Assembly (NCBI RefSeq): GCF_965201105.1
Contig: NZ_OZ241741.1
Location: 2,577,605 to 2,641,604 of the forward strand
From: Terriglobus sp.
Lineage (GTDB): Bacteria; Acidobacteriota; Terriglobia; Terriglobales; Acidobacteriaceae
Reading direction: 5' to 3'
DNA: 64,000 nucleotides
Shown here: one piece after another, positions 12,935 through 61,608 of the stretch
How the letters are laid out: the number at the start of each line of letters is the position of its first letter
Numbering within the stretch: position 1 is the first letter of the stretch
Translations under genes and position numbers: made by a program
The notes under the pieces: model-generated
Seen by the model: only the letters and a program-made list of their open reading frames with translations
Databases searched by the model: none
What the model was told of the DNA's origin: nothing

Positions 12935-14632
12935 TTGGCAAACGAACTCGATCCCGGCAAACGCAACAGCACCGTCCTCACCGAAGGTCCATCCCGCGCG
13001 GCCGCGCGTTCCTACCTGCGCGGCGTCGGCTTCAGCAAGGAAGACCTGCACAAACCCATCATCGGCATCGCCAACACGTGGACGGAGATCGGCCCCTGCA
13101 ACTTCCATTTGCGCCAGGTCGCCGACGCCGTGAAGCAAGGCATCCGCGAAGCTGGCGGCACACCCATGGAATTCAACACCGTCACCATCTCCGACGGCAT
13201 CACCATGGGCACCGAGGGCATGAAGGCCTCGCTCATCTCGCGCGAGGTCATCGCCGATTCCATCGAGCTCGTCACGCGCGGCAACAGCTTCGACGGCCTG
13301 GTCTGCATCGCGGGCTGCGACAAAAACATGCCCGCCTCCGTCATGGCGCTCGCGCGGCTCGACATCCCCGGCCTCATGCTCTACGGCGGCAGCATCGCGC
13401 CGGGCCAACTGCGCCAGCCCGACGGCACCAGCAAAGAGATCACCATCCTGAACGTCTTTGAGGGCATGGGGTCGCACGCCGCGGGCAAGATCGACGACGA
13501 CGAACTCGAGGCACTCGAAGCCGCCGCCTGCCCCGGCCCCGGCGCCTGCGGCGGTCAGTTCACCGCCAACACCATGGCCATGGCCGGCGAGTTCCTCGGC
13601 ATCAGTCCCATGGAGATCACGGGCGTTCCCGCCATGTCGCCGGAAAAGGCGAACGCCTCGCGCGAGGCCGGCCGCCTCGTCATGGACCTGGTCCGCAAAA
13701 ACATCAAGCCCTCACAGATCCTCACGCGCGAGTCTCTGGAAAACGCCATCACCGCCGTCTGCGCCTCGGGTGGTTCCACCAACGCCGTGCTGCACCTGAT
13801 CGCCATCGCGCACGAGCTCCAGATCCCGCTCACCATGGAGGACTTCGACCACATCTCCGAGTGCACCCCGTTCATCTGCGACCTGTCACCCGGCGGCAAG
13901 TACAACGCAACCGACTACCAGAAGGCAGGCGGCTCGCGCGTCCTCGCGCAACGCCTCATCGAGCGTAACCAGCTGCACGACAACATTACGGTCAGCGGCA
14001 GGACCCTGCGCGAAGAAGCCAGCACCGCGCACGAAACACCGGGCCAACCCGTCATTCGCACCTGGGACAACCCGCTCAAGCCCACCGGCGGACTCGTCAT
14101 CTTGCGCGGCAACCTCGCGCCCGAAGGCTGCGTGGTCAAGGTCGCCGGCCACGAGCGCATCCACCACACCGGCCCCGCGCGCGTCTTCGACTCCGAGGAC
14201 CTCTGCTTCGCCGCCGTCGAGCGTGGCGACATCAAGCCGAACGACGTCTGCGTGATCCGTTACGAAGGTCCGCGCGGCGGCCCCGGCATGCGCGAGATGC
14301 TCGCCGTCACCGCCGCCATCAAGGGCATCCCCGAGCTCTCCGAAACCGTGGCCCTGCTCACCGACGGCCGCTTCTCCGGTGCCACGCGCGGCCTCATGGC
14401 CGGCCACGTCGCCCCCGAAGCCCAACTCGGCGGCCCCATCGCCGCCGTCCGCGAAGGCGACCAGATTACCTTCGACATCCCCAACCGCACCCTCAACGTA
14501 AACATCAGCGACTACGAACTCGCCACCCGGCTCCAGGATTTCCAAGCACCCGAGCCCCGCTACAAACGCGGCGTCTTCGCCAAATACACCGCCACCGTAG
14601 GCAGTGCCAGCCAAGGCGCGGTGACCTCGTGA
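12935..14632 (+). CDS. ilvD: Dihydroxy-acid dehydratase
   Basis: TTG start. ...IGIANTWTEIGPCNFHL..., CDKNMP..., GACGGQFTANTM..., LLTDGRFSGATRG and a 565-aa length match the IlvD/Edd family. Confidence 0.95.
   Translation: MANELDPGKRNSTVLTEGPSRAAARSYLRGVGFSKEDLHKPIIGIANTWTEIGPCNFHLRQVADAVKQGIREAGGTPMEFNTVTISDGITMGTEGMKASLISREVIADSIELVTRGNSFDGLVCIAGCDKNMPASVMALARLDIPGLMLYGGSIAPGQLRQPDGTSKEITILNVFEGMGSHAAGKIDDDELEALEAAACPGPGACGGQFTANTMAMAGEFLGISPMEITGVPAMSPEKANASREAGRLVMDLVRKNIKPSQILTRESLENAITAVCASGGSTNAVLHLIAIAHELQIPLTMEDFDHISECTPFICDLSPGGKYNATDYQKAGGSRVLAQRLIERNQLHDNITVSGRTLREEASTAHETPGQPVIRTWDNPLKPTGGLVILRGNLAPEGCVVKVAGHERIHHTGPARVFDSEDLCFAAVERGDIKPNDVCVIRYEGPRGGPGMREMLAVTAAIKGIPELSETVALLTDGRFSGATRGLMAGHVAPEAQLGGPIAAVREGDQITFDIPNRTLNVNISDYELATRLQDFQAPEPRYKRGVFAKYTATVGSASQGAVTS
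14618..14632 (+). repeat. Left copy of 15-bp direct repeat GCGGTGACCTCGTGA
   Basis: Identical 15-mer at 15538-15552. Covers the last codons and stop of ilvD and the GTG start of the inserted ORF. Confidence 0.9.
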
Positions 14633-15552
14633 CTTTGAACGAAGTGGCATCAAGCAGCGCCAAACTTCTTCTCAAGTCCGAGTACGGACCGATTTCGTCT
14701 TATTGGCCCGTGGTCGCCTTCAGTCAGGCTAGCTTTGAAACGCAGATACGACGTAACTATCAGACCGGAAGAGACTTCGTCGTTTATTTGGGCACGAAAG
14801 ATGAAAAAACAATCAAGCGTGAAGATCGAGGTGCGCTGCTGTCCGTCGTCGAGATCGACACTACTCGCACTTACGACACCTACAACCACATCTCGCCGGA
14901 TGCAAAAGCTTGGGCTTCAAAAGACTACCCTGGCCAGTGGTTGAGGTGCTTTCGGGCTCTTCGCGCATTTGACCTTCCTTCTCGTCCTATTGCCGATCAA
15001 CTTCTGCCCAATACGAATCGCAATATGTGGCACGTTCCTTTTCGCGAGGTCATTGACCAAGACCGAATGGCTCTATTAGCCCTGCCCGTCTTACCTGTTC
15101 CGAATATCGATGTTTTTGCCAGATCTCATAAACCTATCGACGTAACAGACTTGTTGCGTTCTGAGAACAAGCTTGCCAGCCAAGAAGCTGTTCGGCTGGC
15201 TGATCTTGTCATGAACCGCGTAATGACATCTGGCGAACTGGTCCAACATCGCGCTCCTCTACGGACAGCGCCGACTGACCTTCAGATCCAAATACTTTCT
15301 CTGCTCTTGCGGAAGCCCCTGCTCTGCTCACTCTGCAATGGGGAGATGCCACTCTCAACGGAAAACAAGCTCTTAAGAATCTCTGGAGATCGAAAGGACA
15401 GTTCACTTGGCGATTACGGACCCGACAACTACCAACTTGTTCATCTAGGCTGCAATTTCGCAAAAAACAACGCTACCGAGGAACAATTTCGGAATTGGCT
15501 AGAGATCGCGAGCATTCACCTGCAAAGAACGGTCGTGGCGGTGACCTCGTGA
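14629..15552 (+). CDS. Low-GC hypothetical protein with C-terminal degenerate HNH/His-Me-finger-like motif
   Basis: 307-aa ORF at about 50% G+C (hand counts) against mid/high 60s in the flanks. C-terminus CSLCNGEM...SGDRKDSSLGDYGPDNYQLVHLGCNFAKNN. Start and stop both lie in GTGA overlaps. The nuclease assignment is tentative. Confidence 0.7.
   Translation: MTLNEVASSSAKLLLKSEYGPISSYWPVVAFSQASFETQIRRNYQTGRDFVVYLGTKDEKTIKREDRGALLSVVEIDTTRTYDTYNHISPDAKAWASKDYPGQWLRCFRALRAFDLPSRPIADQLLPNTNRNMWHVPFREVIDQDRMALLALPVLPVPNIDVFARSHKPIDVTDLLRSENKLASQEAVRLADLVMNRVMTSGELVQHRAPLRTAPTDLQIQILSLLLRKPLLCSLCNGEMPLSTENKLLRISGDRKDSSLGDYGPDNYQLVHLGCNFAKNNATEEQFRNWLEIASIHLQRTVVAVTS
15538..15552 (+). repeat. Right copy of 15-bp direct repeat GCGGTGACCTCGTGA
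   Basis: Identical to 14618-14632. Covers the last codons and stop of the inserted ORF and the GTG start of the TPR-like gene. Confidence 0.9.
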
Positions 15553-16121
15553 TCGAGCAACTCAAATCGCTTCTGCACAACGCCGCGCACCTCCGCAAAT
15601 CCGGCGAGGCCGCTGAGGCCGAGCGCCTCTACAAAGAAGCCGCTGCGCAGGCCGAGGCTGACCAGGCCGTCGAGCGTGCCGAGGCCCTCGCTGGCCTCGC
15701 ACAGACCCGCCGCGACGCCGGCGACCGCACCGGTGCTGCCATCTACTACGCCGAGGCCATCACCCTCGCGCGCGCGGCGAATGACGATCGCATGCTGGCC
15801 TACGCTCTGCGTCACGCTGCCGACGTTCGCAGCGAATTGCATGAGTATGCCGTAGCCTTCTCGCACATCGACGAGGCCATTCGCCTGTACCGCGCCCTGC
15901 TCACCACAGAGCAGCCGCCGACCCTCGATCTCGCGAACGCACTTCGCGTCTCCGCCCTCAACAATGAGCGCGCCGCGTGCGCCGCATGGCACGAGACTCG
16001 CACTCTGTACGCTGCCGTAGCTTCGGGCGACACAGCCGACGATGCGGGCGTGCGGGAATCGGCGGCGCACCTCCATAATCTTTCAGAACATCACGCTGCA
16101 CATTGTGAGGCCAAATCATGA
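15549..16121 (+). CDS. TPR-like helical repeat protein
   Basis: GTG at 15549 (GTGA overlap), GC-rich, 190 aa. Repeated Ala-rich helical hairpins (AERLYKEAAAQAE..., AIYYAEAITLARAAND..., IDEAIRLYRAL). Its stop overlaps the ilvB ATG (ATGA). Confidence 0.55.
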   Translation: MIEQLKSLLHNAAHLRKSGEAAEAERLYKEAAAQAEADQAVERAEALAGLAQTRRDAGDRTGAAIYYAEAITLARAANDDRMLAYALRHAADVRSELHEYAVAFSHIDEAIRLYRALLTTEQPPTLDLANALRVSALNNERAACAAWHETRTLYAAVASGDTADDAGVRESAAHLHNLSEHHAAHCEAKS

Positions 16122-17923
16122 CGGACACACACACAGCATCCGCGAACTCCGCACCCACACTTACCGGCGCCGAAATCCTCTGGGCCACGCTCGCCGGCGA
16201 GGGCGTGACCACCGTCTTCGGCTACCCCGGCGGCGCGATCCTTCCCGCCTACGACGCCTTGCGCAAGTTCCCCACCATCCACCATGTGCTTGTGCGGCAT
16301 GAGCAAGGCGCGGCGCACATGGCCGACGGCTATGCACGCGCCTCGGGTCGCGTTGGCGTGTGCGTCGCCACCAGCGGCCCGGGCGCGACGAACCTGGTCA
16401 CCGGCCTCGCCACCGCGATGCTCGATTCCATCCCGGTCGTCGCGATTACTGGCCAGGTCGCCAGCAGAGTGCTCGGAACCGATGCCTTCCAGGAAATCGA
16501 CATCACCGGCATCACGCTGCCGATCACCAAGCACAACTTCGTCGCCACCCGCGCGGAAGAGATCGCGCCCATGCTGCGCCAGGCCTTTCAAATCGCGCAG
16601 TCCGGCCGCCCCGGCCCTGTTCTGGTCGACATCACCAAGGATGCGCAGCAGGGCACCACGCTCTTCGACTTTGATCACGCCGCGCCGAAACCTTACCGCC
16701 CGCACCCTATGCTGCGTTCCGAGTCCACCGAAATGCAGCGCGCGATCGAACTCATGCGCGCCTCCACGCGGCCCGTCATCCTCGCGGGCCACGGCATCAT
16801 TCAGTCCGAAGCCGAAGCCGAGGTCATCGCCTTTGCCGAACGCCACAACATCCCCGTCGCCACCACGCTGCTTGGCCTGGGCGCCTTCCCTGCATCGCAC
16901 CCGCTCGCGCTCGGCATGATGGGCATGCACGGCGAGTCGTGGGTGAACCATGCGATCCAGCAAGCCGATCTGCTGCTCGCCTTTGGCATGCGCTTCGACG
17001 ACCGCGTGACCGGCAACCTCCTCCACTACGCACCCAACGCGAAGAAGATCCACATCGAAATCGATCCCAGCGAGATCAACAAGAACGTCAAGGTCGATGT
17101 CGCGCTCATCGGCGACTTGAAGCAGGTGCTGCGGACCATCGCACCGCTCATGGACCAGACTTCAGGTGCTCCACGTTCGGCGCAGCCTAACGTGGGATCG
17201 GATGACCCAACCGGCCCATGGCGTGAAGAGATCCGCGCGATGAAGGGTGACGCCAGCGTTCGCGATATCCTCGCCTTGCCCGACAACGGCCACCTCTACG
17301 CCGCGCACGTCATCCACGACATCTGGCAGGAGGCCTCTGCCGCAGGCCGCCTGAACGAAACGATCATCGCGACCGACGTGGGCCAGCACCAGATGTGGGA
17401 GGCGCAGTACTTTCGCCACGAAGTCACGCGCACGCTCATCACCTCCGGCGGCCTGGGCACCATGGGCTTCGCCCTGCCCGCGGCCATCGGCGCAAAGATG
17501 GCCTCTCCCGAAAAAGATGTCTGGGTCATCGCCGGTGATGGCGGCTTCCAAATGACCGCGGCCGAGCTTTCCACCATCCAGCAGGAGGGCCTGCACATCA
17601 ACATCGCCGTCATCAACAACGGTTTCCTCGGCATGGTGCGCCAGTGGCAGGAGGCGTTCTACGACAAGAACTACTCGTGCTCGCCCATCCTCTCGCCCGA
17701 CTTCGTCAAGCTCGCCGACGCTCATGGCATCCCCGGCGCACACGTGACCGAACGCAGCGAAGTCAAGCCCACCGTCACGCGCGCCCGCACCGGCTCGGGC
17801 TCGTTTCTGATCAACTTCGCCGTCGAAAAAGAAGACGGCGTCTACCCCATGATCGCGCCCGGCTCCGCCCTGCACGAAATGGTCCGCCGCCCCAACCCGC
17901 TGATCGAAACGAGCGAGGACTAA
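16118..17923 (+). CDS. ilvB: Acetolactate synthase large subunit (biosynthetic type)
   Basis: GAEILWATLAGEGVTTVFGYPGGAILPAYDAL..., GPGATNLVTGLATA..., GGLGTMGFALPAAIGAK..., GDGGFQM and a 601-aa length match ThDP-dependent AHAS. Confidence 0.95.
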   Translation: MTDTHTASANSAPTLTGAEILWATLAGEGVTTVFGYPGGAILPAYDALRKFPTIHHVLVRHEQGAAHMADGYARASGRVGVCVATSGPGATNLVTGLATAMLDSIPVVAITGQVASRVLGTDAFQEIDITGITLPITKHNFVATRAEEIAPMLRQAFQIAQSGRPGPVLVDITKDAQQGTTLFDFDHAAPKPYRPHPMLRSESTEMQRAIELMRASTRPVILAGHGIIQSEAEAEVIAFAERHNIPVATTLLGLGAFPASHPLALGMMGMHGESWVNHAIQQADLLLAFGMRFDDRVTGNLLHYAPNAKKIHIEIDPSEINKNVKVDVALIGDLKQVLRTIAPLMDQTSGAPRSAQPNVGSDDPTGPWREEIRAMKGDASVRDILALPDNGHLYAAHVIHDIWQEASAAGRLNETIIATDVGQHQMWEAQYFRHEVTRTLITSGGLGTMGFALPAAIGAKMASPEKDVWVIAGDGGFQMTAAELSTIQQEGLHINIAVINNGFLGMVRQWQEAFYDKNYSCSPILSPDFVKLADAHGIPGAHVTERSEVKPTVTRARTGSGSFLINFAVEKEDGVYPMIAPGSALHEMVRRPNPLIETSED

Positions 17924-17926
17924 AGC

Positions 17927-18454
17927 ATGCGCAAGCTCATCACGATGGTCACCCTGCTTGGATATCCGCTCATGACGCACGCGCAAGCGGCACTGCAGGC
18001 TGGAACCGCGGATGCCACGACGCAGCAGCCGGAGATGCAGCAACGCAAGCCCTTCGGTGCCGAGGACACCACCACCATCCACATTCGCCTGCTGAATGGC
18101 AAGACCGGTCAGCCCATCGTGGACAAGGAGATCTTTCTCGAACGCAACAAGACGCACCTGATGTCGCATGCCGAAGAGCGCGACATCAAGACGGACGATG
18201 CCGGCCTTGCCGAAGCAACCGTCGCGAAGACCGGCGACATCCTGAACCCGATCGTGGTCGACTACAAATCCTGCACACCACGCACAAAGCACGGCAACGA
18301 CACCGAAAAATCCGAGCGCTTTCCCATCGCGCAGATACTTACCAATGGCGTCGTCGCACAGAACACCTGCGGCAAAACAACGCGATCACCCCAACCCGGC
18401 GAACTCACGCTGTACTACCGCACCATGAACGTCTTTGAACGCATCACCGACTGA
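17927..18454 (+). CDS. Secreted hypothetical protein
   Basis: Starts 4 nt after the ilvB stop. Signal peptide MRKLITMVTLLGYPLMTHAQA. 175 aa; no nameable domain. Confidence 0.55.
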   Translation: MRKLITMVTLLGYPLMTHAQAALQAGTADATTQQPEMQQRKPFGAEDTTTIHIRLLNGKTGQPIVDKEIFLERNKTHLMSHAEERDIKTDDAGLAEATVAKTGDILNPIVVDYKSCTPRTKHGNDTEKSERFPIAQILTNGVVAQNTCGKTTRSPQPGELTLYYRTMNVFERITD

Positions 18455-18476
18455 TAGAGCACAGCGAAGCGGCCGA

Positions 18477-18508
18477 CTTGCTGACTCGCTGACTCGCTGA
18501 CTCGCTGG
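18477..18508 (-). repeat. Repeat family C: tandem octamer CTGACTCG x3 (rc GTCAGCGAGTCAGC...)
   Basis: CTTGCTGACTCGCTGACTCGCTGACTCGCTGG in the gap before ilvN. Related to 33125-33155 and 33814-33843. Confidence 0.8.
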
Positions 18509-18514
18509 AGCCCC

Positions 18515-19141: not shown

Positions 19142-19146
19142 AGCTA

Positions 19147-21212
<2,066 letters not shown>

Positions 21213-21245
21213 CCTTCACACCTGTTTACGGGCGTAAGCTTTGTT

Positions 21246-21280: not shown

Positions 21281-21342
21281 CCCGCAGCGGCAACACCGCA
21301 CACGGCAGAAGCAGGTCCTTTCCCTGTCCGCATCCAATCAAC

Positions 21343-22380: not shown

Positions 22381-22383
22381 CCT

Positions 22384-25351: not shown

Positions 25352-25355
25352 ACGG

Positions 25356-30219: not shown

Positions 30220-30333
30220 GGTTCCGTAATCCTTGAAGCGTGTAGGCGATCGCCTGTTTATACAACAGCGAGAGCTTCGCACCTCTAACACTTAGTGGCC
30301 ATGCGTAAGCCCCGAACCTGCGTGCTTGTCTGG

Positions 30334-31239
30334 ATGCGTTGCGCCCGCGGGACGGCAGCTCTCATCCAACCAGGAGTGCCTGCCGCTGTATCAGCCCGCC
30401 TGCGCGTCGCCGCCATCGATTTCCTGAACCCTGCGCCTCTGCTCTACAACTTTGAGCACTCGCCCATGCAGGAGCGGCTGGCCCAGCGGTACGACGTGCG
30501 CTACACCTCGCCGGCACAGTGCGCGGAGCAGTTGCGTACCGGCGAGGCCGATCTTGGGCTGGTGCCGATCGGCGCGATGCCGTTTCTGCCCGGTGGTGCC
30601 GCGGTGCGGGGATGCACGATCGCCTCGGAGGCGCCGGTCCGGTCAATTCAACTGGTCTTGCGGCCGGGCTGCACACTGGGTTCCGTTCGCAGCCTGGCAG
30701 CCGACGCGGCCTCGCGATCCTCCCTGGCCTATGTGCAACTGCTGCTGCGTGCCTTTCACCGGAGCGACCCGGTGGTGGCCACTGCTCCGGCCGACCTGCC
30801 GGCGATGCTGGCAACGCACGAGGCCGCTCTACTGATCGGCGACCCGGCACTGCTTGCGCTGGAAGCGCGCGACCGCAGCGGCGTTTTCGCGGAGTGCACC
30901 TGGATCGACGTGGCTAGCTGGTGGCGCGAGTACACCGGCCTACCCTGGGTCGCCGCGGTGTGGGCGGTACGTACCGCAGCGCTTACGGAAACCGGCATGG
31001 ACGCCGGCGTGCTCGCGGCGGACCTGCTTGCGTCACGCGATGCGGGTGTGGCGCACGTGGAAGACCTTGTGCGCGAGTGGAAGCCACGCATCGCCCTGCC
31101 GGCCGGCACGATTCGCACCTACCTGACGCAGAACATCCAATATGTGCTGGACAGTAATTGCCTGCAAGCAATCGAGCGGTTTTACCAACTCGCCGAGGAC
31201 ACGGGTGTGTTGCCCCCGTACAACTTTCCACTGCTCTGA
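30334..31239 (+). CDS. mqnA: Chorismate dehydratase MqnA (futalosine menaquinone pathway)
   Basis: LRVAAIDFLNPAPLLYNF...CAEQLRTGEADLGLVPIGA resembles MqnA (periplasmic-binding-like fold). The start is uncertain (the ORF is open from 30295). Confidence 0.7.
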   Translation: MRCARGTAALIQPGVPAAVSARLRVAAIDFLNPAPLLYNFEHSPMQERLAQRYDVRYTSPAQCAEQLRTGEADLGLVPIGAMPFLPGGAAVRGCTIASEAPVRSIQLVLRPGCTLGSVRSLAADAASRSSLAYVQLLLRAFHRSDPVVATAPADLPAMLATHEAALLIGDPALLALEARDRSGVFAECTWIDVASWWREYTGLPWVAAVWAVRTAALTETGMDAGVLAADLLASRDAGVAHVEDLVREWKPRIALPAGTIRTYLTQNIQYVLDSNCLQAIERFYQLAEDTGVLPPYNFPLL

Positions 31240-33335: not shown

Positions 33336-34967
33336 GTGCCGACCGATGAAATCCTCGCGCCAGAGCAGGCGACCGTTCCATCCGCGCTGACGGACATACC
33401 CGCACGTCCCCGTATCGGGTTTGTTTCACTCGGCTGCCCCAAGAACCTGGTCGACAGCGAAGTGATGATGGGATTGCTGCACCACGCGGGCGCGGAGCTG
33501 ACGCCGCGAGCGGAGGATGCGGACATCATTGTGGTTAACACCTGCTCGTTCATCGATTCGGCGAAGCAGGAAAGCGTAAACACCATCCTGGAGATGGCGA
33601 ACCACAAAACGGCGAACGGCGGCCGCGCGCAGAAGCTGATTGTGGCGGGCTGCCTGGTGGAGCGATACCGGGATGAAATTCGCAAGAACATTCCGGACGT
33701 GGATGCGGTGCTGGGCACGGGCGAGTTGGACGCCATTCTTGCGGCTGCCGGCATGCAGCCGGTGGGGACTGCTGGCACATCGCCGTTCACGATTCTAAGT
33801 GGGACTACAAACCAGCAGGTCAGCGAGCCGGCGAGTCAGCAGGATGCAGCGTTGATCGACCGTGCGTCCAGCGCGGTGCGCAAGCATTCACAGATAGAAG
33901 TGCCGGAGCAGACGTCGCGGCCCGAGGGCGATCTGCGCGAGAAACAGGGCCGGTTCAACCGTGAGGCATGGGATGGTGCGACGGCTGAGTTGCCGAGCTA
34001 TCTGTACTCGGACGAGACGCCACGCATCCTGACCACGCCGCGCGCGTCGGCGTACATCAAGATCGCCGAGGGTTGCGATCATCCCTGCGGCTTTTGCATC
34101 ATCCCGCAGCTGCGCGGCAAGTTCCGGTCGCGGCGCATCTCGTCCATCGTGAACGAGGCAGAGAACCTGTTGCGGCAGGGTGTGCGCGAGATCACGCTGA
34201 TCGGGCAGGACACGACTTGCTACGGCGAAGACCTTGGATTGAAGGACGGCCTGGCGATGCTGCTGGAGGCGCTCGCCACACTGGAGGTGCCGGGCGTGGG
34301 CCCCATTCACTGGCTGCGCTTCCTGTATGCGTATCCGAACAAGGTCACGACGCGGCTGCTGGACACGATCGCCGCGCACGACAACGTCGCGAAGTACCTG
34401 GACGTACCGCTGCAGCATGCGTCGGCGTTGACGCTGAAGCGCATGAAGCGCGGCGGCTCGGGCGCGATTTTTCTGCGCATGCTCGAGAAGGCTCGGGCGA
34501 TCGTGCCGGGCATCGCGATCCGCACCAGCTTTATTGTCGGGTTTCCGGGCGAAACGGACGAGGAGTTCGCTGCGCTGGAAGACTTCGTGAAAGCCGCGAA
34601 GATCGACTGGCTGGGCGTGTTCAGCTACTCGGACGAAGAGGGCGCGGCGGCGTTCGACCTGGGAGCGAAGGTGCCGAAGCGCACGATCGAGGCGCGCCGA
34701 CGACGCTTGATGCGCACGCAGATGAAGATCAGCGCCAAGGCACGTGCGGCGCAGGTGGGCCGCGTGATCGAGGTGCTGGTCGAAGGTCCGTCAGAAGAGA
34801 CGGAACTGCTTTGGCAGGGCCGCACGATGCAACAGGCACCGGAGATCGACGGTCACGTGCTGATCAACGATTTCGGTGATCACGAAGACTTGGTGCCTGG
34901 CACGTTTTACCGCGCGGAGATCACCGAAGCGCACGACTACGATGTGGTCGCGAGGATTGTGGACTGA
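33336..34967 (+). CDS. rimO: Ribosomal protein S12 methylthiotransferase RimO (with expanded inter-domain linker)
   Basis: GTG start. RIGFVSLGCPKNLVDSE (MTTase N), AYIKIAEGCDHPCGFCIIP (radical SAM CxxxCxxC) and a C-terminal TRAM (...YRAEITEAHDYDVVARIV). 543 aa versus about 440 typical. Confidence 0.9.
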   Translation: MPTDEILAPEQATVPSALTDIPARPRIGFVSLGCPKNLVDSEVMMGLLHHAGAELTPRAEDADIIVVNTCSFIDSAKQESVNTILEMANHKTANGGRAQKLIVAGCLVERYRDEIRKNIPDVDAVLGTGELDAILAAAGMQPVGTAGTSPFTILSGTTNQQVSEPASQQDAALIDRASSAVRKHSQIEVPEQTSRPEGDLREKQGRFNREAWDGATAELPSYLYSDETPRILTTPRASAYIKIAEGCDHPCGFCIIPQLRGKFRSRRISSIVNEAENLLRQGVREITLIGQDTTCYGEDLGLKDGLAMLLEALATLEVPGVGPIHWLRFLYAYPNKVTTRLLDTIAAHDNVAKYLDVPLQHASALTLKRMKRGGSGAIFLRMLEKARAIVPGIAIRTSFIVGFPGETDEEFAALEDFVKAAKIDWLGVFSYSDEEGAAAFDLGAKVPKRTIEARRRRLMRTQMKISAKARAAQVGRVIEVLVEGPSEETELLWQGRTMQQAPEIDGHVLINDFGDHEDLVPGTFYRAEITEAHDYDVVARIVD

Positions 34968-34970: not shown

Positions 34971-35330
34971 ATGCCTACGCGACGGCTCACTTCGTCTGAA
35001 CTCGAGATTGCAAATCGCATGCTTGCCGTGCTGCGTACACAACTCGACGAGCATGCGAATGGTGACTCCGACCTCTTGTTCGCTTTGCGACGCAAGATTT
35101 ACAAAGAGCTCACCTACGACGAGCGAGGCAAGCCCATGCATCGGCGAGCATTAAAGCTAAAAAAGATCAAAGAGCAGGGCGGCCTTTGTTTTCTCTGCCA
35201 AGAACAACTTCCGGCCAGCTACACGGTGCTGGACAGGCTTGAGGCAATGCCAGGCTATACAGCAGCAAACACGAGGGTGCTCTGTCGAGATTGTGACACC
35301 CGCACCCAGATCGAACGACGGTATTCGTAA
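34971..35330 (+). CDS. Small low-GC protein with CxxC...DR...N...CxxC (HNH-like zinc ribbon) C-terminus
   Basis: 119-aa ORF starting 3 nt after the rimO stop, at about 52% G+C by hand count. C-terminus GGLCFLCQEQLPASYTVLDRLEAMPGYTAANTRVLCRDCD. Function tentative. Confidence 0.6.
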   Translation: MPTRRLTSSELEIANRMLAVLRTQLDEHANGDSDLLFALRRKIYKELTYDERGKPMHRRALKLKKIKEQGGLCFLCQEQLPASYTVLDRLEAMPGYTAANTRVLCRDCDTRTQIERRYS

Positions 35331-35339
35331 GGAGTAACA

Positions 35340-35777
35340 ATGGCAACCCCAGCCGATGCAGAACTGATATTGAAGCTGTACGAACTTCGCCGCGAGCCGG
35401 TTATGCGCGAAGCGCGCAAGTTCGTTGTGGCCGATTTCAATCCAACGAACGAAAGCGAGCTGCTTGCCGTGCAGCGCGGCATGGGAACGCCGCAGAACGC
35501 ACTTTGGCGGCAGGCGGTCACGTATTGGGAAATGGCCTCGACGCTATGCCTGCACGGCGCGCTGGACGCGGAGCTTTACTTCGACGCGAACATGGAAGTG
35601 ATCGCCGTCTACACCAAGTTTTTTGAGCTGTACAAGCAGGCCACGGGCGCGGACTTCATGCCGCAGACGGCGAAGCTGATTGCGAAGACCCCGTCCGCAC
35701 AGACGCGGGTGGAAAACCGCAAGAAGGCGATGGCGCGTGACACGGAACTGGCGGCTGCGACGGCGGAGAAAGGGTAA
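35340..35777 (+). CDS. Hypothetical protein (145 aa, helical)
   Basis: Good RBS (AAGGAG, 6 nt before the ATG). Tightly packed between the 119-aa ORF and yacG. No nameable domain. Confidence 0.6.
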   Translation: MATPADAELILKLYELRREPVMREARKFVVADFNPTNESELLAVQRGMGTPQNALWRQAVTYWEMASTLCLHGALDAELYFDANMEVIAVYTKFFELYKQATGADFMPQTAKLIAKTPSAQTRVENRKKAMARDTELAAATAEKG

Positions 35778-35780: not shown

Positions 35781-36014
35781 ATGGAAGCGAACACAGCAGG
35801 AACATCCGCCGCAAGGAAAACGCTTTCCTGTCCCACCTGCCGCAAGCCGGTCGCCACGGGAAGCGAAGACTTCCCGTTTTGCAGCGACCGCTGCCGCCTG
35901 CTGGACCTGGGCAAGTGGGCAAGCGGCGAGTACCGCATCTCGTCGCCGGTGCTGGATCCGGACCTGCTTGAGGACATCGAGAGCGGCCAATTGCGCGGCG
36001 GTAACGAATCGTAG
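35781..36014 (+). CDS. yacG: DNA gyrase inhibitor YacG (zinc-binding)
   Basis: CPTCRKPV...[23 protein letters not shown] matches the YacG zinc ribbon and its C-terminal motif. Confidence 0.8.
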
Positions 36015-53982: not shown

Positions 53983-54096
53983 GCTCAGCTTAGCCGCAAG
54001 ACATGGAACAAGTCATTGCGGCGGCGTGCCGTCGTGGTTTGCAAACCGTCAGGGGCGCGCACTGCAAACACGGGGTTTGCCGGCACTGACGAGAGA

Positions 54097-56276: not shown

Positions 56277-56445
56277 CGTGGAAAATAGACGCGCGATTCT
56301 GCCGAGTGGCTTCTTTACATGCCTTGATGCGAGCGCGGATGCGGGCAGTTGTGACCGCAGTGTGGCCCTGGTCTGAAATCTTTGGCGGTGCGAACACAGC
56401 CGCCGTTGCAAGCGGTCGCCCGCGGCCGCACGGCATCACTGTTGC

Positions 56446-57225
56446 ATGCTGCCGTTTCGTGAGTATGGATTGCAGACAGCAGACTCGCCGCAGAAGGGGT
56501 CGCCTGTATTTCTGCTGCTCCACTTCTTTGGTGGTTCGCATCGCGAGTGGGACGGTGTGATCTCGCTTTTAGAGGAGCGGCACCGGTTGATCGCGGCAGA
56601 CATGGCCGGCTTTGGTGAAGCTGCGGCGCTGGTGGGATACAGCGTCTCTGAAATGGCCGCGCGCATCTGCGAATTGGTGCAGTACCTGGCGCCCGCGCAG
56701 GTCATTCTGGCCGCTCATTCCATGAGCGGAAAAGCGGCAATGGTCGTGGCTGCGGAGCCGCCGGCGAACCTGGCTGGCGTGGCCCTGGTGGCACCATCGC
56801 CTTTGAGCGGCGAACCGATAAGCGATGCCGCGCGTGCGGAAATGCGCGTGGCCAACACGTCGCGTGAGCGCGCCGAGAAGTTCACGCGGGCAGGCTTTGC
56901 CCACGCGCCTTCCGATGAACTGCTTGAGATTGCCGTAGCAGATGTGCTGCGCTCGAGCGATGATGCGTTCCACGCCTGGGCGGATCAAGGCACGCGTGAG
57001 AACTGGTCCGGGCGCGTGACGGAATTCCGTGTGAAGACGGTGCTGATCGTGGGCGAGAAGGATGCGGCGATCGATCCGGAGTTGCAGAAGCGCGAAACGC
57101 TGCCGCTGGTGGAGGCGAGCGGCGGGCGCATGTACTTGCTGCCCGATTGCGCGCACCTGGTGCCCTATGAAGCGCCTGTTCAGCTTTCCAGCATCCTGGA
57201 GGGTTTCGCTGCAGAGCTGATCTGA
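56446..57225 (+). CDS. Alpha/beta hydrolase
   Basis: VFLLLHFFGGSHREW (HG-like oxyanion region), nucleophile elbow AAHSMSG and C-terminal ...DCAHLVPYE. Confidence 0.8.
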   Translation: MLPFREYGLQTADSPQKGSPVFLLLHFFGGSHREWDGVISLLEERHRLIAADMAGFGEAAALVGYSVSEMAARICELVQYLAPAQVILAAHSMSGKAAMVVAAEPPANLAGVALVAPSPLSGEPISDAARAEMRVANTSRERAEKFTRAGFAHAPSDELLEIAVADVLRSSDDAFHAWADQGTRENWSGRVTEFRVKTVLIVGEKDAAIDPELQKRETLPLVEASGGRMYLLPDCAHLVPYEAPVQLSSILEGFAAELI

Positions 57226-57271
57226 CTGCGATGGGTGGGGCGCCGCATGCAGTAAGCTTGACCTACTCGCG

Positions 57272-58930
57272 ATGATGGCTTCGATCCCGCGCACTGCGCC
57301 AGGCTCCCGCTCCGTGTGGGCGACGGTAAGCGTAAGCGCCCTGATCACCTATGTGTTGGGTGCACTGTATCTGCTGGCGCGCATTCTGCGGGTGACGCAC
57401 GGACATTTCACCTATACGCTGGACGATCCTTACATTCACCTGGCCTTATCCGAGCGCATTCGCCATGGCCTGTACGGTCTGAATGCGGGCGAGCCGGCGA
57501 GTCCATCTTCCAGCGTGCTGTGGCCTTTTCTGTTCGTCCCGTTTGCGGGAACGCGGCTGATGGTGTTTCTACCACTGATCCTGAATCTGGTCTTCGGATG
57601 CGTTGCCGCGTGGTGCCTGGGCGCACTGGTGGATCGCTATGTACACGGAGAGCCGATGGAGCGGCGACAGCGATGGCTGGCGCACCTGCTTGGCGTCCTG
57701 CTGGTATTCGCGACAAACCTGCTGGGGCTGACCTTTTTGGGTCTGGAGCAGTTGCTGGAAACGCTGCTGTGCATCGGTTGCGCTTTCCTGCTGATCGCGG
57801 CAGCGGAGGAAACTTCCTTGCCGCGGTGGTCGGTCGGCGCGGCGATTCTGCTGCCAATGGTGCGGTATGAGGGCCTGCTCGTCACGTTCGCCGTCGTATT
57901 CGCACTGGCATCGCTTCGACGTTGGAGGATAGCTGCTGTTGTGCTGGTGGCATCGTGCCTTCCGGTCCTGCTGTTCAGCGTGTTCCTGCACCACCTGGGG
58001 CTTCCAATTCTACCCATGTCCGTGCTGGTGAAACGCGTGATGATTTCGGGCGAAGGCAGCGGTTTGCGGCACCTGGCGTCAGTCGTGAGCGGCGCACTGC
58101 AGGCGGCGAAAAACGACTCCGAACATTACACGGTCGTGATGCTGGTGGCGGTCTCCATAGCGACACTGCTGTATGTGTGGCGTAGCCGGCGGTTCATGCC
58201 GGTGCTGCTGGCGGTGAGCGGGGTGGCGGTGATTCAACTGCTGTTTGGGCCGTTCGCGTGGTTCTACCGGTATGAGATGTATTGCGTCAGCTTTGTTTTG
58301 CCGGTGTTGCTGGCCTGCAGTTTGGGAGGCTGGGGCGCAGAGCGGGACGGCTCCACTGTGGCGGGCGGCAGGCGCACGACGCAGCCGGCGCTGGGCCTGC
58401 TGTGCGTGGCTACCGGGGCCATCGTGCTGCACTACCTTCAGGCGTTTACGGGGACACCGAATGCGGCACAATCTGTTTTGCGGGAGCAGGGGCAGTTGGC
58501 GCGGCTGACGACCGAGTTCTACCCTGGGCCGGTTGCCGTAAACGATCTGGGCCTGGTGTCGTACCAGCGAACTGCGCAGCAGTATGTGTTGGACCTGGGC
58601 GCGTTGGGTTCGCCGGAGGTCTTTCACACACCGTCATCGGAACGGACGCCTGCATGGCTTGACTCCGTTGTGGCAGAGCACCACATCGGCTTGGTCGCCA
58701 TTTACCCGGAGTGGTTCAAGGCGTTGCCAAAGGATTGGCAGCCTGTCGCAAAGCTGTGCGCGGAAGAGGCGTATTACGGACCTGCTACGCCACGCGTGAT
58801 GCTGTACGGGACGCCGGATGCGAACGGAGCAGACCTGATGCGCTCCCTGACGCAGTTCAAGGCAACCTTGTCGCCCGGCACCCTGCTGGAACTGCATCCG
58901 CAAAACGCGTCGCAAACCTGCAGGCCGTGA
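57272..58930 (+). CDS. Polytopic membrane protein (possible GT-C-fold glycosyltransferase)
   Basis: 552 aa with ten or more hydrophobic helices. An acidic motif TLDDPYIH follows the first TM, and there is a soluble C-terminal domain. Function speculative. Confidence 0.55.
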   Translation: MMASIPRTAPGSRSVWATVSVSALITYVLGALYLLARILRVTHGHFTYTLDDPYIHLALSERIRHGLYGLNAGEPASPSSSVLWPFLFVPFAGTRLMVFLPLILNLVFGCVAAWCLGALVDRYVHGEPMERRQRWLAHLLGVLLVFATNLLGLTFLGLEQLLETLLCIGCAFLLIAAAEETSLPRWSVGAAILLPMVRYEGLLVTFAVVFALASLRRWRIAAVVLVASCLPVLLFSVFLHHLGLPILPMSVLVKRVMISGEGSGLRHLASVVSGALQAAKNDSEHYTVVMLVAVSIATLLYVWRSRRFMPVLLAVSGVAVIQLLFGPFAWFYRYEMYCVSFVLPVLLACSLGGWGAERDGSTVAGGRRTTQPALGLLCVATGAIVLHYLQAFTGTPNAAQSVLREQGQLARLTTEFYPGPVAVNDLGLVSYQRTAQQYVLDLGALGSPEVFHTPSSERTPAWLDSVVAEHHIGLVAIYPEWFKALPKDWQPVAKLCAEEAYYGPATPRVMLYGTPDANGADLMRSLTQFKATLSPGTLLELHPQNASQTCRP

Positions 58931-58941
58931 CGAAGACACGC

Positions 58942-58978
58942 ACAGAAAAGCCCCGGGGTTACACCGGGGCTTTTCTGT
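58942..58978. terminator. Bidirectional rho-independent terminator
   Basis: ACAGAAAAGCCCCGG-GGTTACA-CCGGGGCTTTTCTGT between convergent genes (stops at 58930 and 59016). Confidence 0.75.
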
Positions 58979-59015
58979 CTGTACACCTGCGGCGATACTG
59001 ATCCGCGCGGCACCA

Positions 59016-60221
59016 TCAATTCTTGGACGGATCGAATTCATTCGCGCCGGCCATCGCAACACCGACCGGCGTGAACGTGTGCAGCACGCGAACGGTGCTG
59101 CCCTGCTCCGCGATTACCTCGGGCAATCGCTTGTAGCAGTGCGGCGACTCGTCCAAACCGCCGCCGCGCAGCACCACGTTCGCCTCGCGCAACCAACTTT
59201 GCATCATCTGCGGCTTCACCAGGCCCTCGCGTTTGCACACACCGGTCTTGCGATCAAAGACACCCGCCGCCTGCTTGCGGGCCATGACCCGGCCTGCGCC
59301 GTGTACGGTGGAGAACATGGCCGCGCGCTGTGCTTCGCGTGTGACATCGTCCACAGTTTCGGGCTTAACGCCCTCCAGGATGACCGACACCTCACCCATG
59401 GTGCCGCCGACAAACCCACGCTGCCCGGGAAAGGCCGGCGTGGCACCCTTGCGGCAGACCCAGAGCAGCTTGCCGTCGTGCTCTTCCTGCCAGGCGAAGT
59501 TGTGGTGGTTGTGCACCTGCTCAACCACGGGTGCGCCGAGCAGACGCGCGACACGGTCACAGACCCAGTCGCGCCCGGCGTACGCGTATGCGCCGCCCAG
59601 TTGCATGGCGGTGATGTACTGCGCGCCAAGGTCGCTGGAAACATCGAGCCAGACCGGATCGACCATCATACAGTCCTTCGCCTCAGCGGCCTTCAGGAAC
59701 CATGTGGCAATGCCATGACCCAGACCGCGCGAACCGAAGTGAACACCAACCCACACGCGATCCTGCTCGTCGGTGAAGAGGTCGACGTAGTGGTTGCCGC
59801 TACCGATGGTTCCAAGCTGCGCTTCGGCCTTGCGCTTCAGCGGAGCCGCTGCTTCCGTGTTCCAGCCGGCGTGACCGTCGCGCTCGAAAAGCGGGTGCGC
59901 ATTCTCCTCATTGTTCTTGCGGCCAACGCCAAACGACAACGTATTCCAGATGTCGTCCATGATGCGGTGGATGTTGGCGCGCAGTTCCGTGCCGGGCATA
60001 TCGAGACGCACCGCCTTGTTCCCACAGGCGATGTCGAAGCCGACCGCCGTCGGCGAAATGCGATCCTGCGCCGCGATCACCCCGCCGATGGGTACGCCAT
60101 AGCCAAGATGGCCATCGGCCATCAGCGCGAAGCGATCCGCACTGCGGGCGCAGACCTTTGCCTGCTCCAGCGTGTTGTCCTCGTGCGTGCCCCAAACGGG
60201 AATGTTGTCGATGTATTGCAT
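59016..60221 (-). CDS. rtcB: RtcB family RNA 3'-phosphate ligase
   Basis: ...ALMADGHLGYGVPIGGV..., DIACG, GSGNHYVDLF and HNHH match the RtcB metal/GTP-site motifs. Confidence 0.9.
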   Translation of the reverse strand: MQYIDNIPVWGTHEDNTLEQAKVCARSADRFALMADGHLGYGVPIGGVIAAQDRISPTAVGFDIACGNKAVRLDMPGTELRANIHRIMDDIWNTLSFGVGRKNNEENAHPLFERDGHAGWNTEAAAPLKRKAEAQLGTIGSGNHYVDLFTDEQDRVWVGVHFGSRGLGHGIATWFLKAAEAKDCMMVDPVWLDVSSDLGAQYITAMQLGGAYAYAGRDWVCDRVARLLGAPVVEQVHNHHNFAWQEEHDGKLLWVCRKGATPAFPGQRGFVGGTMGEVSVILEGVKPETVDDVTREAQRAAMFSTVHGAGRVMARKQAAGVFDRKTGVCKREGLVKPQMMQSWLREANVVLRGGGLDESPHCYKRLPEVIAEQGSTVRVLHTFTPVGVAMAGANEFDPSKN

Positions 60222-60302
60222 TGCTCGTGTTCCTTTCTGGCCGCACGCATTTGCGCGTGCGTACCGGGTTGGGTTGGTCCGTCGGCGCTCATCGCGTCCG
60301 GA

Positions 60303-60338
60303 GCAAAAGAAAGAGCCCGGGCTGTAGCCCGGGCTCTT
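60303..60338 (-). terminator. Rho-independent terminator of tsf
   Basis: The minus strand reads AAGAGCCCGGGC-TACA-GCCCGGGCTCTT followed by TCTTTTG, 25 nt after the tsf stop. Confidence 0.75.
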
Positions 60339-60362
60339 GGATTGGTCGTTAGAGGACGAGGC

Positions 60363-61034
60363 TTATGCCTGGGCCTCCTCGGCCGGAGCTTCGGGGGTTT
60401 TGATCTGGGCGACGGTGGCGTTCGGGTCACCGATCTTGAACCGGGCGAAACGGCGAACAGAGATGTTCTCGCCGAGCTTGCCGACCTTGGTTGCAATGAC
60501 CTGGGCCACTGTCTGCGACTGTTCCTTGATGAACGGCTGGTCGAGCAGGCACACCTCTTCGAAGTACTTGCCCATCTTGCCTTCCAGCATCTTCTCGATG
60601 ATGTTAGCGGGCTTGCCGCTGGCGGCCGCCTGGGCGCGGTAGACTTCCTTTTCCTTGTCGATGTCGGCCTGCGTGACTTCCTCGCGGCTGACGTAGCGCG
60701 GATCGGCGGCGGCGATGTGCATCGAGATGTCGCGCAGAAGCTCCTGGAAGTCCTCGGTGCGGGCGACAAAGTCGGATTCGCAGTTCAGCTCGAGCAGGAC
60801 GCCGATCTTGCCGCCGGCGTGAATGTAGGTGCCAACCGCGCCTTCATTCGTGGAGCGCGACGCCTTCTTGGCAGCGGACGCCATGCCGCGCTTGCGGAGG
60901 ACAACGAAGGCTTCCTCCATGTTGCCCTTGGTTTCTTGCAGTGCTTTGAGGCAGTCGCCCATGGGCGCGCCACTCTTTTCACGCAGCTCCTTTACGAGCT
61001 TTGCGTCGATCTTGGTTGCTTCTGCTGTTGCCAT
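60363..61034 (-). CDS. tsf: Translation elongation factor Ts (short form)
   Basis: LVKELREKSGAPMGDCLKAL (UBA-like N-terminus), ...EGAVGTYIHAGGKIGVLLELNCESDFVART.... 223 aa. Confidence 0.92.
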   Translation of the reverse strand: MATAEATKIDAKLVKELREKSGAPMGDCLKALQETKGNMEEAFVVLRKRGMASAAKKASRSTNEGAVGTYIHAGGKIGVLLELNCESDFVARTEDFQELLRDISMHIAAADPRYVSREEVTQADIDKEKEVYRAQAAASGKPANIIEKMLEGKMGKYFEEVCLLDQPFIKEQSQTVAQVIATKVGKLGENISVRRFARFKIGDPNATVAQIKTPEAPAEEAQA

Positions 61035-61038
61035 GTCT

Positions 61039-61553
61039 TTACACCTTTCCGTTAATCACTAAGAGGCTCTCGATCCTCGCCTCTGAAATTTTCCACGCTG
61101 CCGGTATCTCTTCCAATTGCCCCGGAGCTGTTTTCGAGCGGCTTGTCCACTGGTGACGCACGTACAAAATGGAATCGCCTCTTCCTCCGGATGTCTGCCG
61201 TAGTCTCGCCGCAACTTCTAAAGGTGTGGCGAGATATATCCTCGGCACTACATCGTCCGGAGCGTCAGCGAACTGCACAAAACAGAACACTGTCTTAGAG
61301 CCGTGTCGCGAAAACCACGTATCAATCGCGCCGTGATAATCCGCTTTCCTTTCCTCAGAAAGCTTTGTGTTAGTCCCCAACTTCCATCTTGGCTTCCTTT
61401 GACAGTCCCTTTAAGAAGGAGATCTCCACGCGCGACGATCAGATCGTACTCAGGTTGATTGGCGCCATACTGCACTGACACGTCGAATCCTAGACGGGCA
61501 AACTGGGCAGCGGCAAAATCCTCAGCCGCTACGGCACAATTTCTAGAGTTCAT
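61039..61553 (-). pseudogene. Low-GC nuclease-like ORF split over two frames (frameshifted or recoded) between rpsB and tsf
   Basis: Frame A (61553-61248) starts MNSRNCAVAAEDFAAAQFARLGFDVSVQYGANQPEYDLIVARGDLLLKGTVKGS..., which resembles the core of a PD-(D/E)xK / Hjc-like fold. Frame B (open to 61039) has no ATG or GTG start and reads on ...ADYHGAIDTWFSRHGSKTVFCFVQF.... The frames switch near the run AGGAAAGGAAAG around 61340-61352. About 50% G+C. Confidence 0.5.
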
Positions 61554-61567
61554 TACTATTCCTACTA

Positions 61568-61608
61568 CACACAAAAGCGTGGTCGCCAAAGCAGAGGCGG
61601 CCACGCTG
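61568..61608 (-). terminator. Hairpin plus U-tract after rpsB (terminator/attenuator)
   Basis: The minus strand reads AGCGTGGCCGCC-TCTGCTTT-GGCGACCACGCT followed by TTTTGTGTGT, 22 nt after the rpsB stop. Confidence 0.6.

Follow-up and report, generated by a model that had tools for sequence, protein, structure and literature searches.

The stretch of DNA examined here is a 64,000-nucleotide (nt) window of the Terriglobus sp. genome, on contig NZ_OZ241741.1, in which three short patches of low guanine-plus-cytosine (GC) content are found at junctions between conserved housekeeping genes, each filled by a single open reading frame (ORF) for a nuclease-like protein. When the window was scanned in 400-nt steps of composition (mean GC 0.626, standard deviation (SD) 0.036), only four segments fell more than 2.5 SD below the mean, namely positions 1-700, 14601-15600, 35051-35450 and 60901-61650. 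One ORF matches each of the latter three, which are the only coding segments displaced to this extent, and these ORFs are referred to below as inserts 1, 2 and 3:

14629-15552, plus strand: insert 1, an intact gene of GC 0.505 encoding 307 amino acids (aa), 100% identical to WP_419804086.1
34971..35330, plus strand: insert 2, an intact gene encoding 119 aa, with a three-helix N-terminus and a PacI/EndoVII-type HNH unit
61039..61553, minus strand: insert 3, a pseudogene of a ~170-aa PD-(D/E)xK (YraN/PDDEXK_5-like) family

The GC content and third-codon-position GC (GC3) of these genes are 0.505 and 0.53 for insert 1, 0.536 and 0.59 for insert 2, and 0.518 and 0.55 for insert 3, while the genes neighbouring them have GC3 values of 0.77-0.88. 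Each insert is a single ORF co-directional with its host operon, and the gaps to the upstream and downstream genes are -4/-4 nt, +3/+9 nt and +76/+4 nt, respectively. A tRNA search of the window found none, and neither an integrase nor a transposase is present among the genes neighbouring the inserts. The nuclease folds are HNH in inserts 1 and 2 and PD-(D/E)xK in the insert 3 family (fold level only). A sequence-only reading of this DNA had already described three patches of about 50% GC, co-directional with their operons and set within 0-80 nt of the upstream stop and 0-10 nt of the next start, with no integrase, transposase or tRNA nearby, and these descriptions stand. The junctions it named were correct as to ilvD, rimO and rpsB/tsf, but insert 2 is followed by a DUF4760 gene and not by yacG, and insert 1 is followed by a TPR gene and only then by ilvB; similarly, its statement that each patch encodes a small nuclease-like protein agrees with the folds or motifs of all three, though insert 3 is frameshifted over two frames. 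That the patches represent three separate horizontal acquisitions, in which single promoter-less nuclease genes from different mobile families came to lie between operon cistrons, is an interpretation that we hold to be evenly balanced between right and wrong. The fourth segment, positions 1-700 at the edge of the window and not listed by the sequence-only reading, is non-coding, with a GC content of 0.48-0.49 and no convincing ORF, and lies upstream of a proline-rich, TonB-like ORF at 612-1772, so labelled from reading its translation only.

The history of an insert can be followed most closely at the junction of rpsB and tsf, where insert 3 is located among the following features:

61630..62577, minus strand: rpsB, the host gene upstream of insert 3, recognised by its translation and 97% identical to the Ribosomal_S2 gene of L088 (retrieved loci are given here by L numbers and proteins by P numbers)
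61576..61607, minus strand: hairpin of the rpsB-tsf spacer (AGCGTGG...CCACGCT, then a T-run), kept upstream of insert 3
60363..61034, minus strand: tsf, the host gene downstream of insert 3 (Pfam EF_TS, E 2.2e-42)

Insert 3 starts 76 nt past the rpsB stop codon and ends 4 nt ahead of the tsf ATG. A metagenome scan with the window Tsf sequence recovered 80 Terriglobales-like loci (Tsf 76-88% identical), 72 of which span rpsB to tsf, and the PD-(D/E)xK gene is absent at 69 of those 72, with a median spacer of 135 nt; the presence/absence polymorphism that the sequence-only reading had proposed to look for is thus seen for insert 3, together with repeated gain and decay. Hairpins like that of the window are found in the empty spacers of L104, L107, L112 and L160, and likewise in L011. 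The only carriers at rpsB-tsf are the window lineage (the window, L088 and L089) and L011, a Terriglobales metagenome-assembled genome (MAG) from the genome scan. In the Tsf tree, the window pairs with L104, which is empty, and L011 groups with L179, L177 and L165, which are likewise empty. The window and L011 insert proteins are 64% identical, each having many closer relatives elsewhere (rank 91-110 of 198), and the distances to rpsB and tsf, 76 and 4 nt in the window, are about 100 and 30 nt in L011. Together, the separation of the carriers by empty lineages, the insert proteins that are not nearest relatives and the differing distances indicate two separate gains at one spacer, for which a rough birthday estimate, based on the dozen or so acidobacterial copies seen, gives a chance probability of 0.03.

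Comparison of the window with L088 dates the insertion relative to its hosts. Specifically, the proportion of differing synonymous sites (pS) is 0.30-0.41 for rplM, rpsI, rpsB and tsf (pooled 0.39) and 0.15 for insert 3 (binomial p = 1.5e-8), which argues that insert 3 is younger than the split of its hosts. At the nucleotide level, insert 3 is 94.5% identical and the 76-nt spacer 96% identical, and the tract of low divergence begins some 18 nt ahead of the rpsB stop and reaches about 15-40 nt into tsf. The gene is no longer intact: in the window the deletion of 1 nt near 61349-61351 (AAAGGGAAAG -> AAAGGAAAG) spreads it over two frames, and residues that are invariant in the family are substituted (LKVSVKGS -> LKGTVKGS), while the copies in L088 and L089 are without the deletion and instead carry a CAG-to-TAA stop at about codon 120. 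The different lesions show insert 3 to be decaying independently in the window and in L088/L089. Homing-endonuclease-type selfish genes are expected to invade a site, to spread laterally into that same site and then to decay independently. In being gained twice at the same spot, in its youth and in its decay, insert 3 behaves like such a gene, a likeness drawn by analogy.

No convincing border repeats are found at inserts 2 and 3. The 3' end of rpsB (..ATAEATA*) and the 5' end of tsf (MATAEATK..) do share a direct repeat of 18 nt, imperfect at 15/18, at 61014-61031 and 61636-61653, which also occurs in L088; this repeat does not abut insert 3 and probably reflects composition, the termini in relatives being likewise rich in Ala/Thr/Glu. 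The same spacer holds other small ORFs in other relatives. L146 and L166 have a different ORF of 87-107 aa (MTNIQLYFAIG...RLARLEERLAR), for which a transmembrane segment and a coiled coil are predicted, L137 has a truncated version of it, and L178 and L127 contain other short membrane-like ORFs. It seems that genes land in the rpsB-tsf spacer recurrently.

The family to which insert 3 belongs has about 2400 members. Out of 185,579 species genomes, a scan built on two conserved motifs only, the patterns of which favour intact copies and the result of which is a floor count, found the family in at least 259; these extend from archaea to Firmicutes, with proteins 51-67% identical to that of the window. 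Against PF11645 (PDDEXK_5), for which the cut-off is 26.1 bits, intact relatives reach 18-26.6 bits, within the N-terminal third and mostly over profile positions 1-53, and the window fragment scores 15.2 bits; the match to YraN (3fov) is weak (E 0.011), and NCBIfam YraN matches are sub-threshold. The family can be aligned to both PF11645 and YraN (UPF0102) over its N-terminal ~55-90 residues, an E...D...xK core included. Unlike them, it has Ser for the (D/E) of (D/E)xK, scores at or below the cut-off, and possesses a conserved ~80-aa C-terminal half (GRGD-ILYE motif) with no known relative.

Insert 1 lies in the leu/ilv operon between the following features:

12935..14632, plus strand: ilvD (dihydroxy-acid dehydratase), the host gene upstream of insert 1 (Pfam ILVD_EDD_N and ILV_EDD_C, E 6.5e-124)
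14618..14632, plus strand: left copy of the 15-mer GCGGTGACCTCGTGA, comprising the last ilvD codons and TGA, and giving insert 1 its GTG start
15538..15552, plus strand: right copy of the 15-mer GCGGTGACCTCGTGA, comprising the last four codons of insert 1 and TGA, and giving the GTG of the TPR gene
15549..16121, plus strand: TPR-repeat gene downstream of insert 1 (Pfam TPR_12, 3.6e-6), of host-like GC (0.66), its start at 15549 being inferred
16118..17923, plus strand: ilvB-like acetolactate synthase large subunit gene, with the N-terminal motif PTLTGAEILW, as in the genes that follow the insert in L005 and L182

The GTG start of insert 1 overlaps the ilvD TGA (GTGA), the insert's stop is joined in the same way to the TPR gene (TGA onto GTG, 15549), and the TPR gene in turn ends with a TGA overlapping the ilvB ATG. 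The 15-mer duplication that the sequence-only reading had reported at this site is exact, with copies at 14618-14632 and 15538-15552 and a chance expectation of about 5e-6. Deleting one copy and the 905 nt between the copies restores a GTGA overlap between ilvD and the TPR gene, so that the predicted empty sequence reads ...GCGGTGACCTCGTGATCGAGC... at this junction. Restriction genes of Types I-IV have been described to insert without mobility genes and with duplication of the target (Furuta, Abe and Kobayashi 2010, PMC2853133), and by analogy the 15-mer looks like such a duplication. Insert 1 resembles those insertions in that a restriction-type gene lies between direct copies of a host sequence and is accompanied by neither transposase nor integrase; it differs from them in the length of the repeat, which is 15 bp as compared with more than 30 bp in the survey, and in that the repeat falls exactly on the stop/start overlap, so that both couplings are rebuilt.

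Relatives of insert 1 occupy the same junction in other genomes, namely P0003 (L004-L007, GCA_027350105.1), at 60% identity, and P0008 (L182), at 58%, such that the ilvD stop is occupied in three lineages: the window, L005 and L182. The L005 and L182 copies start in a 4-nt overlap with the ilvD stop (ATGA) and run a few codons into ilvB, where the two stop positions are homologous; the ilvB counterpart in L004/L005 has TPP_enzyme_N/M/C domains. The border repeat is limited to the window copy, L005 and L182 being without one. All three copies have a GC3 of 0.50-0.57 inside flanks of 0.82-0.88, a persistence that is not easily explained by vertical descent. The L182 copy (4001-4861, P0008) is without ~19 residues of the best-conserved N-terminal motif (FLKSEYGP..WPVVAF) and may be degenerating. 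Elsewhere, a relative of insert 1 in L001 is found among DUF4145, GIY-YIG and integrase genes beside ffh, and one in L003 directly after a C5 DNA methylase.

Pfam, NCBIfam and PADLOC models gave no match to the insert 1 protein, which belongs to a family of 38 homologues, the named ones being acidobacterial (Terriglobus, Terracidiphilus, Granulicella). The family alignment reveals an invariant C-terminal motif, C233-x2-C236 ... D254-R255 ... Y263-G-P-x-N267 ... H272-x2-C275-N276-x2-K279-N280, and this C-terminal segment matches residues 91-119 of PacI (3ldy; DRsDSfeGYsPqN..L.C..CN..K) weakly (E 1.4) and phrog_1035, 'endonuclease VII', at E 7.7e-7. In the AlphaFold (AF2) model, the N-terminal ~160 residues have a predicted local distance difference test score (pLDDT) of about 90, and the C-terminal nuclease region is of low confidence. 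For the N-terminal part, Foldseek ranks the McrB N-terminal domain of S. marinus first (6n0s, E 4e-4, probability 1.0) and many YTH domains after it. From the model and the motif matches, insert 1 is predicted to consist of a YTH/PUA-like reader at the N-terminus and a PacI-type HNH nuclease at the C-terminus, as Type IV restriction enzymes are built. About half of the family (P0014-P0038, 400-474 aa) has an additional ~140-aa N-terminal domain (..SLQxQGLxSLAxWAxxxGxPAITGLIV..), and the Granulicella rosea and Terracidiphilus copies are of this long form.

The pairing of a PUA-superfamily reader with an HNH nuclease characterises modification-dependent restriction enzymes (PMC6765204). Insert 1 shares with the Type IV enzymes (the TspA15I/VcaM4I group and the SRA-HNH enzyme TagI; PMC6765204, PMC6212794) a PUA-like reader followed by a C-terminal zinc-bound HNH-type nuclease. 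No methylase gene adjoins insert 1 in the window, L005 or L182, and one of its relatives, P0025, directly follows a C5 DNA methylase. Unlike the Type IV enzymes, it has D-R in place of D-H, as does PacI, it lies in an amino-acid biosynthesis operon and not in a defence island, and it has no sequence match in Pfam, NCBIfam or PADLOC; its modification-dependence is putative. By analogy, the intactness of the gene and its reader-plus-HNH build suggest that it may be retained as a Type IV-like, modification-dependent restriction enzyme.

Insert 2, the smallest of the three, is located between the following genes:

33336..34967, plus strand: rimO, the host gene upstream of insert 2 (Pfam UPF0004, Radical_SAM and TRAM_2)
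35340..35777, plus strand: DUF4760 gene, the downstream neighbour (Pfam PF15956, 1.4e-15), of host composition (GC3 0.77)
35781..36014, plus strand: yacG (Pfam YacG, 5.2e-17)

It starts 3 nt past the rimO stop and ends 9 nt ahead of the DUF4760 start. The public annotation (WP_419804103.1) gives 103 aa from an internal Met, and homologues back the 119-aa reading, nearly all of the 237 proteins of the family being 119-120 aa in length, at 55-63% identity to the window copy, in hosts that include Planctomycetota, Alphaproteobacteria, Acidimicrobiia, Marinobacter and Peregrinibacteria. The AF2 model (pLDDT 89) consists of three helices followed by an HNH (beta-beta-alpha-metal) unit, and Foldseek matches it to Gme HNH, T4 EndoVII, the Cas9 HNH, McrA and Cap5. 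The motif residues are C73, C76, D88, R89, Y96, N100, C105, C108 and D109; against T4 EndoVII the insert 2 profile aligns VLDR to HLDH (E 0.07), and throughout the family D-R replaces the D-H of HNH enzymes while G-Y and N are invariant. In PacI, Asp and Asn bind the metal and Tyr takes the place of His as general base (PMC4081073), and the D-R-Y-N pattern of insert 2 is, by inference from PacI, compatible with activity.

The evidence that insert 2 is an insertion consists of its composition (GC3 0.59 vs 0.77-0.80) and its phyletic pattern. Inclusion of the DUF4760 gene in the insert was considered and rejected, as that gene has host composition and is absent beside insert 2 homologues elsewhere. 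These homologues are found in an Abi_C/HSDR_N_2 island (L093), in clusters of small unknown genes (L092, L095) and 170 nt upstream of dnaX-ybaB-recR (L096-L101); the four contexts have no neighbour in common. Insert 2 may be either a selfish nuclease or a solitary restriction enzyme.

The three inserts are not members of one lineage, as the sequence-only reading had proposed, but of three families. The kinship of inserts 1 and 2 is remote and confined to the PacI/EndoVII-type HNH core (43 columns, hhalign E 4e-4), both matching phrog_1035, and insert 3 is unrelated to either. Both HNH families resemble PacI, a rare-cutting Type II HNH enzyme (PDB 3ldy), in the motif DR-x5/6-G(D)Y-x3-N-x2-L-x-(C/H)-x2-C-(N/D), which adjoins a CxxC zinc site; within each family these residues do not vary, and the sequence matches to 3ldy are weak (E 0.87-1.4). 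They differ from it in their N-terminal parts, and PacI is outside the top 50 structural matches for insert 2. All three families, with 38, 237 and about 2400 members, are patchy across many phyla, which bears out that the inserts are not conserved core genes of this lineage, and family genes in other hosts are mostly GC-poorer than their flanks.

The sequence-only reading had also known of no element class with these properties, but the inserts come close both to solitary restriction genes with target duplication and to free-standing homing endonuclease genes. The latter, exemplified in phages by T4 seg/mob and 'intronless homing', are likewise lone nuclease ORFs between conserved genes without a recombinase, and, as insert 3 does, they show presence/absence at a fixed site, lateral spread into the same site and then degeneration. 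The inserts differ from the phage genes in their location in core operons of a bacterial chromosome (rpsB-tsf, ilv, rimO) and in the near-absence of their families from viral contigs; moreover, the PD-(D/E)xK family is conserved and mostly intact, its members are not generally confined to one site each, and cleavage of the empty allele by the insert 3 family is, by analogy, putative. The inserts are gene-sized, recombinase-less nuclease genes using host operon expression, one of them with a homing-like life history; the presence of such genes inside bacterial chromosomal core operons is uncommon, yet a variant of known biology.

The genomic contexts of the PD-(D/E)xK family are diverse. Members lie at rpsB|tsf twice, 7 nt after gcvT (L090), beside genes for methylmalonyl-CoA mutase, thiolase, coaBC, Cas12b and H-NS, between hsdR and hsdM of Type I systems in three Clostridia (gaps of -20/15 nt in L056, 3/-1 nt in L063 and 0/17 nt in L077), and between NAD-dependent epimerase and squalene-hopene cyclase genes in a Chloroflexi MAG (L066, -4/3 nt). 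A conserved partner, whether methylase, antitoxin or recombinase, was rejected for this family, its upstream neighbours being heterogeneous in 63 genomes. When PD-(D/E)xK genes in 65 genomes were compared with the other genes of the same loci, using crude gene calls (longest ORFs), co-directional flanks on both sides were found for 46% of the family as against 41% of the background (p = 0.48), and a co-directional upstream neighbour for 79% as against 61% (p = 0.004).

Within the window, the leu/ilv operon also contains, besides the TPR gene described above, further guest genes that encode no nuclease, are near the host in GC and sit in junctions just as tight:

11224-11727: GyrI-like gene, between leuC and leuD
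12369-12902: 177-aa signal-peptide-like ORF, between leuD and ilvD
17927-18454: 175-aa signal-peptide-like ORF, between ilvB and ilvN

These guests indicate that tightness alone is not special, and, together with the other ORFs of the rpsB-tsf spacer, that operon junctions are generally permissive; it is composition and nuclease folds, not tightness, that set the three inserts apart. L005 has a counterpart of the ilvB-ilvN ORF (179 aa) and is without the GyrI-like and TPR genes.

Several established kinds of element were tried as descriptions of the inserts. An integron gene cassette does not fit: no integrase is present, and there is no room for attC, since insert 1 overlaps the next gene and inserts 2 and 3 leave 9 and 4 nt. 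Nor do the ORFs contain the transposase domains of an insertion sequence or transposon (no inverted-repeat search was run), and they fill the inserts almost completely, leaving little or no room for terminal repeats. PADLOC gave no significant match for any of the families, the nearest being PtuB (E 1e-3 to 3e-2, through the HNH core) and PDC-S02 (0.016), and NCBIfam gave sub-threshold YraN matches only; a known defence system was rejected on these results. The window also contains dprA and cinA, which are compatible with DNA uptake and recombination at conserved flanks and prove nothing. A cumulative GC skew minimum at ~30300-30900, located at the divergent dprA/topA (minus strand) and menaquinone-biosynthesis (plus strand) genes, may mark a replication origin or terminus, or a gene strand switch.

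How such genes might arrive, be expressed and be lost can be pictured as follows. Judging from the anatomy of the junctions, expression would result from read-through from the host operon, with translation starting at the GTGA stop/start overlap in insert 1 and after a short spacer with a Shine-Dalgarno-like sequence in inserts 2 and 3. Spread, the pattern of which is seen for insert 3 only, would use the conserved housekeeping genes on either side for recombination, most likely stimulated by nuclease cutting of the empty junction allele, as in phage 'intronless homing'. Once fixed, the gene would decay unless it paid its way, insert 3 representing the decay stage. The shared location of the inserts would stem not from a common junction-targeting machinery but from the properties of conserved-gene junctions, which would provide free expression and long homology arms, and would tolerate guests. 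The broader proposition, that chromosomal, recombinase-less single-gene nucleases home into core-operon junctions, with the flanks serving as target and homology arms and host coupling as the means of expression, the rpsB|tsf gene being caught in the invasion-decay cycle and the ilvD insert duplicating the stop/start overlap, is offered tentatively and is open to considerable doubt.

A number of observations weigh against homing of this kind. DNA cleavage by the three proteins is putative, as is any target specificity; the canonical HNH His is Arg in both HNH families and the canonical (D/E)xK acid is Ser in the third, and with these residues substituted catalysis would depend on further conserved acids and on the PacI analogy, with Tyr as general base. 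Homing endonuclease genes decay fast, but 79 of 80 PD-(D/E)xK members in reference genomes, 50-67% identical to the window copy across phyla, are intact (as counted with patterns that favour intact copies), and the family is under selection at some level. The three insert copies at the ilvD site are equidistant (57-60%), as are their ilvD (79-81%) and ilvB (78-83%) genes, a relationship that one old insertion followed by faster evolution and site-specific reinvasion fit equally well. Among the loci retrieved, by scans aimed at the insert 3 family and Tsf, no empty ilvD junction was seen, and neither a relative of insert 2 at the rimO junction nor an empty site there was seen among them. A family-wide preference for tight junctions (<=30 nt on both sides) was rejected, the figures being 14% for PD-(D/E)xK genes and 11% for the background (p = 0.5); with relatives of inserts 1 and 2 also occurring next to a C5 methylase or in surroundings of a defence-like or mobile kind, the targeting of stop/start junctions that the sequence-only reading had attributed to these elements is not supported as a family property. 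Finally, viral contigs are nearly empty of the families (3, 2 and 1 matches), and PLSDB plasmids gave no match for the insert 2 and insert 3 families, such that neither a phage nor a plasmid vehicle is supported by these searches.

Many of the same observations would be expected if the inserts were passive islets, produced by rare illegitimate recombination, surviving where they are harmless and moved by recombination of their flanks (e.g., by natural transformation), the nucleases being defence genes with no mobility of their own. Such an origin, which we regard as possible but questionable, would account for the equally tight non-nuclease guests of the leu/ilv operon (the GyrI-like gene, the 177-aa ORF, the TPR gene and the 175-aa ORF), for the other small ORFs in the rpsB-tsf spacer of relatives and for the lack of enrichment of the PD-(D/E)xK family at tight junctions, and it agrees with the build of insert 1, which is that of modification-dependent restriction enzymes (PMC6765204), with the defence-like islands or C5 methylase found around relatives of inserts 1 and 2, and with the presence of dprA and cinA in the window. 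It is less readily reconciled with two independent gains at one spacer, which are unlikely by chance (roughly 0.03), or with the ends of the young tract, which lie tens of nucleotides from insert 3, where plain import would reach into the flanks; furthermore, insert 3 is dead in two strains and is thus not kept there as a defence gene, and none of the three families is in PADLOC. The inserts might, alternatively, be old resident accessory genes, gained once in the distant past and inherited vertically without ongoing mobility, their low GC being maintained by selection (e.g., to keep a toxic nuclease weakly translated) or because GC-biased gene conversion is lacking. The insert 1 copies, equidistant in step with ilvD and ilvB, have the same type of left junction in three lineages, a homologous right junction in L005 and L182, and a GC3 near 0.50-0.57 in all three copies despite flanks of 0.82-0.88, all of which would suit such residents. 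We nevertheless judge this explanation improbable: insert 3 is missing at 69 of 72 loci, has carriers that are not sisters and is younger than its flanks, a GC3 for insert 1 that is far from that of the host after synonymous saturation would call for special pleading, the duplicated 15-mer testifies to a discrete event in the lineage of the window, and the families are far too patchy for lineage core genes. Scarcely credible is an artefact, whereby the low-GC patches would be assembly chimeras or contaminant reads. A sequencing error in a homopolymer might in principle account for the frameshift of insert 3, and nothing else speaks in favour; the same arrangements recur in independent assemblies (L004-L007 and L182 for insert 1; L011, L088 and L089 for insert 3), the junctions keep the frame of the host genes, and insert 3 is also substituted at invariant residues, with a different lesion in the sister strain.

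Whichever of these histories applies, the window presents three uncharacterised families, a YTH-like plus PacI-type HNH candidate, a 119-aa PacI/EndoVII-type HNH protein and a 170-aa PD-(D/E)xK protein, any of which could yield new sequence-specific or modification-specific enzymes. The 15-bp junction duplication additionally points to a route by which a gene may be inserted at an overlapping stop/start pair with translational coupling kept on both sides. If the homing-like reading is true, selfish nuclease genes would be able to colonise the most conserved operons of free-living bacteria without a recombinase; this would explain the odd low-GC 'hypothetical' ORFs in housekeeping operons, and would provide a natural system for nuclease-driven gene conversion between bacterial chromosomes.

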